From Escherichia coli (GTDB lineage Bacteria; Pseudomonadota; Gammaproteobacteria; Enterobacterales; Enterobacteriaceae): a stretch of 9,131 bases of DNA. Made by a program: the position numbers and the translations under genes. The notes below the pieces were generated by a model. That model ran no database searches. It was not told the DNA's origin and saw only the letters and a program-made list of their open reading frames with translations. Below, piece by piece: positions 8,448 to 9,066 of this stretch (the first letter of the stretch is position 1; every line of letters starts with the position of its first letter). Location: assembly GCF_003334785.1 (NCBI RefSeq), contig NZ_QOWV01000034.1. One strand, written 5' to 3'.

Positions 8448-8570
8448 ACAATCTCCTTTGATAAAAATTAATAGATTCTAATTTCATACCAAGGCTAATT
8501 TAAATAAAGGCTATTTAAGAGAAAAACAAGTCAGCCTGACAGACATATCCCCTCCCATGGCAATATGCCG

Positions 8571-8672
8571 CTATTTCGCGTTTTTTTTCACGCCATAATG
8601 CGTTTCAAGGTAGCGAATATCTTCGATTGCCCATGGTGTGCGCATTCTTTTGGGTTTATTTTCCATTACCAT
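8571..8672 (-). other. Short ORF (33 aa, MVMENKPKRMRTPWAIEDIRYLETHYGVKKNAK) ending just after an A8 homopolymer; possible small protein or frameshifted remnant
   Basis: Translated by hand from the reverse complement; below the ORF-track length cutoff. Lies 14 nt downstream of the 126-aa gene on the same strand. A8 tract at 8581-8588 near its 3' end; alternative frames after the tract stay open for roughly 20 more codons. Confidence 0.25.
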
Positions 8673-8685
8673 GTTTTATCAGCCA

Positions 8686-9066
8686 TCATGGCTGCCTCTC
8701 CGGTTTGCCAGCGTGTTCCACCTGATAACGATTAATCAGCTGATTCAGTGCCATTTCAGCCTGTTTTTGCTGCTGTTCACTGCCATTCTGGTTACGGGCT
8801 TCATCATAGCGACGTAACTGCTCTTCCGCCGGGATATGCCGGTTAAAAGCCTGCATGATGCCAAACACCTCCGTTTTCAGTTCACTGACCGTCATGTATT
8901 TTCCCCGCTGTTCATCCAGACGGTTCAGGCGTTCAGCCAGCTGCTGTAAGCGGGTCATGCCTTCATTCCAGCCCGTCATCGCCTCTTCCGGGAGCGCACG
9001 ACTCCTTACGCTCTTCTGCCAGTTATCCACCATTTCCTGAACACGGGGATTGTCGGTAAGCGTCAA
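8686..9066 (-). CDS. Hypothetical protein, 126 aa, predicted helical, Gln/Arg/Glu-rich; higher-GC flank gene
   Basis: ORF with host-like (higher GC) composition, unlike the AT-rich island. Heptad-like charged helices (LQQLAERLNRLDEQRGK, QQQKQAEMALNQLINRYQ). No obvious SD at the annotated ATG, so the true start is uncertain. Function not recognised. Confidence 0.55.
   Translation of the reverse strand: MTLTDNPRVQEMVDNWQKSVRSRALPEEAMTGWNEGMTRLQQLAERLNRLDEQRGKYMTVSELKTEVFGIMQAFNRHIPAEEQLRRYDEARNQNGSEQQQKQAEMALNQLINRYQVEHAGKPERQP

Follow-up and report, generated by a model that had tools for sequence, protein, structure and literature searches.

Defence-island hotspots in the Escherichia coli pan-genome are conserved flanks that carry alternative anti-phage cargo, and homopolymer-controlled contingency (phase-variable) genes occur in Neisseria, Haemophilus, Campylobacter and others. 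The locus described here, located in a window of 9,131 nucleotides (the whole stretch of E. coli DNA that was analysed), was compared with both, and with the SANT/Myb-like protein family of WP_032234106.1, which is itself rare and uncharacterised. As in the E. coli defence hotspots, the remnant of a VasL-domain gene and the start of a Myb-like gene adjoin Zorya II, a Mokosh-like helicase, a 1016-aa protein or Qat, and in Citrobacter the slot after an intact VasL gene holds an OLD-family nuclease and a homologue of the AT-rich gene of the window. Unlike those hotspots, this slot belongs to the interior of the selC island, where a decayed T6SS cluster encloses it, and is not found at a tRNA/integrase boundary; IS elements have scrambled its left flank, and the Myb-like gene is cut at a different place in each replacement. 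With the contingency genes of Neisseria, Haemophilus and Campylobacter the window shares a run of eight identical bases in the 5′ part of an ORF and a frameshift relative to the intact allele, but it has no restorable frame, and its tract is fixed in 233 of 246 records and derived within a truncated pseudogene. With the WP_032234106.1 family it shares sequence, the first 28 residues in frame and a place after the VasL gene, but it keeps only about 35 of 204 codons, no complete Myb-type repeat, and a 1-nt deletion. Positions 8448–8690 are very probably a mosaic scar, composed of the end of the VasL gene, a spacer, a Myb-like stub and an AT-rich leader, and not a working gene.

RefSeq records of identical DNA supplied the layout of the window, which is chromosomal DNA of E. 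coli and is matched at 99.7–100% identity by the ETEC strain TW10722 and closely by many others, including CFT073. On the minus strand, RefSeq annotates qatD, qatC, qatB and qatA at 2635–7194, followed at 7326–8447 by a 373-aa ‘hypothetical protein’ gene with a GTG start, which is also present in the ORF list with its translation and is referred to here as the AT-rich gene. Positions 8448–8685 are an unannotated gap with no feature in the RefSeq records. To the right of the gap, again on the minus strand, is the 3′ remnant of a T6SS ImpA_N/VasL-domain gene (8686–9056, stop codon at 8686–8688), consisting of the C-terminal ~122 codons at a GC content of 53%. This remnant is named ‘VasL domain-containing protein’ in RefSeq, where it is marked incomplete with the N-terminus missing, and it aligns at 48% identity with residues 347–423 of an intact 459-aa ImpA_N+VasL protein of Citrobacter portucalensis (E = 3e-26). 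Comparison of genomes identified the remaining positions, 9057–9131, as the end of an ISEc23 element (IS66 family), a strain-specific insertion in the VasL remnant: TW10722 alone matches past 9056, while the other junction-bearing genomes stop there and go on into VasL sequence. TW10722 was also the only one among the complete genomes searched to carry ISEc23 at the 9057 site.

The initial annotation, made from the sequence alone, had described a turn from AT-rich to host-like composition immediately right of the 373-aa gene, and this turn was confirmed, with GC content rising from 33% through 41% to 53%. By segment, GC is 33.1% in the 373-aa gene (7326–8447), 32.8% at 8448–8563, 41.0% at 8564–8685 and 53.4% at 8686–9056; taken more broadly, it steps from 33% (7195–8563) to 50% (8564–9056). 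A maximum-likelihood analysis placed the GC change point near 8530 with a support interval of 8509–8690, which includes the junction defined by homology at 8563|8564. The other features described there were also found at their coordinates. A 33-aa minus-strand ORF runs from 8672 to 8571 and translates as MVMENKPKRMRTPWAIEDIRYLETHYGVKKNAK*, an A8 homopolymer (T8 on the plus strand) occupies 8581–8588 with the stop of the ORF two codons past the run, and both alternative frames do stay open beyond the run, yet for only ~17 and 23 codons. Taken alone, the 33-aa ORF and the 8-nt run are not beyond chance, as ORFs of 30 aa or longer number 84 in the window, which also has two A/T runs of 8 nt or longer where shuffles predict 0.45. 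The meaning of both comes only via comparison with other genomes. Three plus-strand ORFs in the same region (8565–8735, 8627–8725 and 8638–8817) are antisense to the stub or the VasL remnant and were treated as chance ORFs.

In a blastn search of 5,426 complete E. coli genomes with 8448–8700, 245 genomes had the entire interval at ≥99% identity and ~38 more had only part of it. An intact SANT/Myb-like gene of 204–210 aa is present in ~20 strains just downstream of the VasL-domain remnant; it encodes 204 aa in E300010 and STEC367 and 210 aa in LH13-b, and RefSeq names the product SANT/Myb-like DNA-binding domain-containing protein (WP_032234106.1, 210 aa; WP_244588867.1, 204 aa). By homology, positions 8564–8666 of the window (minus strand) are the 5′ stub of this gene, codons 1 to ~35, an unannotated pseudogene in a region where the RefSeq records have no feature. 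At the DNA level, 8564–8700 is 97% identical to E300010 at the start of its 204-aa gene (positions 8490–9104 of locus L003). At the protein level, the stub peptide agrees with MENKPKRMRTPW(T/A)IEDIRYLETHYGVKK, and BLASTP against the 210-aa LH13-b protein gave E = 1e-16 with 23 of 29 residues matching. Residues 1–28 of the intact protein are MENKPKRMRTPWTIEDIRYLETHYGVKK, from which the window ORF differs by one substitution, and REIAAY, residues 30–35 of the intact protein, was found in the −1 frame of the window. The stub sits 19 nt past the VasL stop, as the intact gene does in loci L003, L008 and L009. The 33-aa ORF at 8571–8672 is the frameshifted frame of this stub together with two codons upstream of it.

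The W..E..L unit typical of Myb/SANT repeats occurs four times in the intact protein, and a Pfam search with the 204-aa form returned only a weak Myb_DNA-binding match (E = 0.012). The Myb-like family comprises 13 clusters in 5.8 billion proteins, with distant relatives that carry PF00249, and no NCBIfam family could be assigned to the Myb-like protein, to the AT-rich protein or to the VasL remnant. To judge from its sequence, the stub is a pseudogene fragment and not a functional family member.

Nucleotide alignment with the intact alleles resolved two lesions in the stub. The intact alleles read GTG AAG AAA ACC CGC GAA ATA GCG GCA TAC CTG, and the window reads GTG AAA AAA AA- CGC GAA ATA GCG GCA TA|T TGC at the same stretch, so that over the tract GTGAAGAAAACCCGCGAAATAGCGGCATA in the intact alleles stands against GTGAAAAAAAA-CGCGAAATAGCGGCATA in the window. 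Two substitutions and the loss of 1 nt made the A8 run out of AAGAAAACCCGC, and the frameshift is therefore real. Beyond the tract, homology to the intact gene extends for only 17 nt more, to a point within codon 35, at 8563|8564. The distal ~170 codons of the Myb-like gene are absent from the window, and ~245 genomes match only nucleotides 1–160 of the intact-gene query. The minus-strand frames after the tract reach stops within 6, ~50 and ~70 nt, with none extending beyond 75 nt. Because ~170 codons are absent and the frames are soon stopped, no tract length can restore the product, which makes the truncation the primary lesion and the frameshift secondary decay. Among the genomes searched, none had the truncation without the frameshift or the reverse, a distribution that does not by itself order the two events. 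The ‘frameshifted small gene’ of the initial annotation thus stands as the remnant of a longer gene with a real 1-nt deletion, but slippage as the cause of inactivation does not.

The boundary between the AT-rich cargo and the T6SS-side flank was mapped from match starts and alignments to 8563|8564, a recombination or replacement junction. Among the ~38 partial genomes, those that share the right flank always start to match at 8564 (position 117 of the 8448–8700 query), and the same start was obtained with other queries, at position 25/26 of 8540–8630 and at position 160 of the intact gene. The initial annotation would have been refuted by a right flank that always adjoins the AT-rich block and by the absence of any intact longer ORF; in related genomes the two are sometimes apart, and such an ORF does exist elsewhere. 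The same junction together with the T8 tract in ~245 of 5,426 genomes points to one ancestral event that has since spread.

The interval resolves into four pieces. Reading along the minus strand, the first is the 3′ end of the decayed T6SS ImpA_N/VasL gene, ending with the stop at 8686–8688, the second a 19-nt spacer after that stop, and the third the first ~35 codons of the Myb-like regulator gene (8666→8564); from 8563 leftwards the fourth is unrelated AT-rich DNA with the predicted promoter, leader and ribosome-binding site of the 373-aa gene. We infer that the distal ~170 Myb-like codons were lost when DNA was replaced in the variable slot that follows the T6SS cluster, and that this replacement would have introduced the AT-rich gene, with the Qat system further on, presumably by illegitimate or IS-mediated recombination. 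The stub either acquired, or arrived with, the two substitutions and the 1-nt deletion that give the A8 run and the 33-aa ORF; this sequence change is seen directly in the alignment.

At least five different neighbours were found at the same right flank among strains. In one arrangement the neighbour is Zorya II, with the Myb-like gene intact; in another it is an 893-aa SF1 helicase with a PADLOC match to MkoA/MkoC (8e-44), with the Myb-like gene cut near nt 191–195. In MEW it is a 1016-aa ‘anti-phage protein’ with a transposase remnant, in one context it is IS1, and in the window type, which includes CFT073, it is the AT-rich gene and Qat. Among this cargo, Zorya II, Qat and the ‘anti-phage protein’ are annotated in RefSeq as anti-phage systems. 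Since a single flank is joined to differing neighbours, the boundary is best described as a cargo junction in a variable defence slot. A search of the literature on this slot and on Qat in CFT073 found nothing specific. On the far side of the slot, several strains (loci L003, L005, L009 and L010) carry a conserved module of a PAPS reductase (IbrA-like), an IbrB-like protein and a PerC-family regulator; the window lineage is without this module and has IS elements and a SLATT module there instead. A wider proposal, which we put forward tentatively and regard as possible but doubtful, is that the site downstream of T6SS ImpA_N/VasL is a cross-genus anti-phage hotspot (Escherichia and Citrobacter) in which replacements repeatedly cut the Myb-like gene, possibly with a preference for codon ~35, and that the AT-rich gene with its variable-number tandem repeat (VNTR) is an undescribed stand-alone defence gene.

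In an alternative reading, codon ~35 would be the preferred target of a site-specific recombinase or transposon that brings in defence cargo, and the junction would be att-like and not a random breakpoint. The observation that speaks for such a target comes from MEW, where a stub allele that is 86% identical breaks within 1 nt of the window breakpoint (at 8990–9010 of locus L010, compared with 8563–8565 in the window) and is joined to unrelated DNA on its left. This arrangement was found in a single genome, however, and what lies to the left of its break is a transposase remnant of IS5/IS903 type, truncated internally, and not the end of an element. Further breakpoints in the Myb-like gene lie at ~nt 67, 191–195 and 582 of the query, so that other cargoes break the gene at other places, and with at least five breakpoints a coincidence within 1–2 nt has, by a rough estimate, a probability of a few percent. 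Nor was a recombinase found beside the slot in E. coli, where the search for flanking repeats, an att-like site and an adjacent recombinase gave none, and the only repeat flanking the cargo is a 13-nt match at 12 of 13 positions, between 2738–2750 (in qatD) and 8553–8565, which is at chance level for 7.8 kb. We consider a preferred target at codon ~35 very unlikely on this evidence, and the shared break in MEW is either a coincidence or a hint of a preferred site. Insertion of an IS end as the cause of the break was also considered and rejected, because no IS end is present at 8563 and the MEW transposase remnant is itself truncated at the junction. A search of the plasmid collection for a donor of the AT-rich block gave no close copy; its only matches were a homologue of 66% identity on a megaplasmid of Yersinia and an IS911-like end of 45 nt.

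On the cargo side of the replacement junction, the sequence and conservation of 8448–8563 (minus strand) assign it to the 5′ region of the AT-rich gene. A strong Shine-Dalgarno sequence, AAGGAG (8458→8453), lies 5 nt before the GTG, and upstream of it is a promoter-like TTTAAA-18-TAGAAT with a −35-like element at 8504→8499 and a −10-like element at 8480→8475. Matches to the promoter consensus show no excess over shuffles (2 found against 1.6 expected), and the promoter assignment depends on a consensus match of this shuffle-level frequency together with conservation. The motif ATGAARTTAGAATC...TTTTATCAAAGGRG-GTG is conserved ahead of homologues from a second E. coli context (L006) and from Citrobacter, and in Xenorhabdus it is partly or loosely kept. 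In Z1323MEC0001, 8448–8505 is conserved at 93% identity, and the gene is next to an IS66 element without the T6SS right flank, which indicates that the proximal region travels with the AT-rich gene. We take 8448–8563 as the predicted promoter, 5′ leader and ribosome-binding site of this gene, and a putative promoter and 5′ UTR, from 8448 to ~8510, are most likely all that functions in the interval. An Rfam scan of 8300–8800 at E ≤ 1 returned only a sub-threshold 6A RNA match (19 bits against a gathering threshold of 41), folding of the minus strand at 8448–8690 was not beyond shuffles (z = −0.44), and a terminator scan found none.

This arrangement bears on whether the 33-aa ORF could be a functional small protein or a leader peptide that influences the AT-rich gene and the Qat genes, which are on the same strand. 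The ORF does share its strand with the AT-rich gene, lies ~120 nt upstream of it and is kept in 245 genomes; this retention, however, reflects recent common descent, as coding and non-coding parts of the 253 nt are equally ~100% identical. No Shine-Dalgarno sequence precedes either ATG, the interval lacks a terminator or attenuator-like structure and, at the z-score given above, any excess of RNA folding, and homologues of the AT-rich gene elsewhere are without the ORF yet have the proximal promoter and Shine-Dalgarno sequence. A functional role for the ORF is therefore highly unlikely, and a 33-aa peptide may be made by read-through from upstream remnants.

The step in composition had also been suggested to mark the right junction of an island, and in this the initial annotation was correct about a junction, at 8563|8564, but not about its being the edge of the island, as in CFT073 it lies ~29 kb inside the selC island. 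That the GC boundary is the outer junction of an acquired island with the core chromosome would agree with the sharp rise to 50–53%, near the E. coli average. Against this, only ~293 of 5,426 genomes carry the right flank, which is made up of T6SS pseudogenes with more accessory genes after them; the tRNA-Sec gene and integrase of the CFT073 island lie 29 kb to the left of the boundary, and rightwards this island goes on through T6SS remnants, DUF4222 and the grp microcompartment. With no flanking repeats above chance level either, this reading has next to no probability, and the boundary is better understood as the cargo junction of the variable slot.

Variation of the homopolymer was followed with a 91-nt query (8540–8630) that spans both tract and junction and returned 246 full-length records. 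Of these junction-bearing records, 233 are identical over the 91 nt (T8) and 13 have a single difference, which in CFT073 is a substitution without gaps. Three records are one base shorter, E62 (confirmed as T7), GN06489 and OZ547099; the T7 of E62 still does not restore the frame, and the few T7 calls may be long-read homopolymer errors. The ancestral AAGAAAACCC was found in no junction-bearing genome and the A8 run in no intact gene. The A8 tract thus appears essentially fixed, and the pattern of tract and junction fits a single ancestral event, passed on as a block by inheritance or transfer, and not a contingency locus. The earlier suggestion of a slippage-inactivated or phase-variable gene, in which slipped-strand mispairing in the A8 tract would switch a small gene on and off, scarcely merits credence: although an 8-nt homopolymer does lie inside the ORF close to its 5′ end and the rare length variants just listed exist, the gene body beyond codon 35 (~170 codons) is missing, a 57-aa chimera is all that A9 would yield and A7 yields one of ~46 aa with its end derived from the cargo, no length restores a full-length ORF, one length is shared by 233 of 246 records, and the tract, for which the intact alleles have AAGAAAACCC, is itself derived and part of a dead stub.

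Pseudogene stubs at mosaic boundaries are very common, and this one, which had no annotation, shows no evident biology of its own. The gain is one of annotation, in that the stub and the junction at 8563|8564 explain the GC step and the odd ORF and leave no room for a phase-variable gene. As a marker of a variable anti-phage slot at the decayed T6SS end in the selC island, the junction may also aid defence-gene mining, and the AT-rich VNTR gene and this slot are more interesting than the stub itself.

Homologues of the AT-rich gene are present in Klebsiella, Citrobacter, Serratia, Xenorhabdus and Yersinia. Pfam found no domain in the protein, and PADLOC gave a weak match to PD-Lambda-4_B (E = 3.6e-6). 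An NCBIfam match of the E62 protein to ChePep was set aside as a low-complexity artefact of its (AEV)n repeat. The homologue in Citrobacter portucalensis is just downstream of an intact T6SS ImpA_N/VasL gene, beside an OLD-family nuclease and an integrase, and that of Xenorhabdus stands alone near IS elements; family members occupy 8001–9098 of locus L013 and 8001–9149 of locus L012. Between the start of qatA and the stop of the AT-rich gene, at 7256–7300, is a 45-nt solo end fragment of an IS911-like (IS3 family) element, 91% identical to ends beside IS911 transposase genes on Shigella and E. coli plasmids. This fragment marks a second module boundary, which places the AT-rich gene outside the Qat cassette. 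The gene comes from a family of the Enterobacterales that is uncharacterised, and it is a candidate stand-alone defence gene.

Within the AT-rich gene, the VNTR at 7414–7465 is a perfect 9-nt in-frame repeat, TCAGCAACC, that encodes (AEV)n. In strains that are otherwise near-identical, it is present in 5.8 copies (the window), 23.8 copies (E62), 43.8 copies (300709) and 61.8 copies (TW10722). RefSeq calls the gene frameshifted in several strains because of indels in this array. Many database homologues are listed as ‘partial’, probably because short-read contigs break at the repeat, and the short array of the window may be an assembly collapse. Compared with the closed TW10722 genome, the window is missing ~2.8 kb, including part of the VNTR and, as the annotation suggests, a group II intron.

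At the left end of the window, a SLATT-domain gene is whole (1507–2082), and its partner, a ‘nucleotide-binding domain’ gene, has been cut to a 3′ fragment of ~120 nt (the pair covering window ~1386–2082). An IS3-family element at 130–1343 reduced this partner, which is intact at 442 aa in CFT073, and the SLATT module of the window is probably a disabled two-gene defence module.
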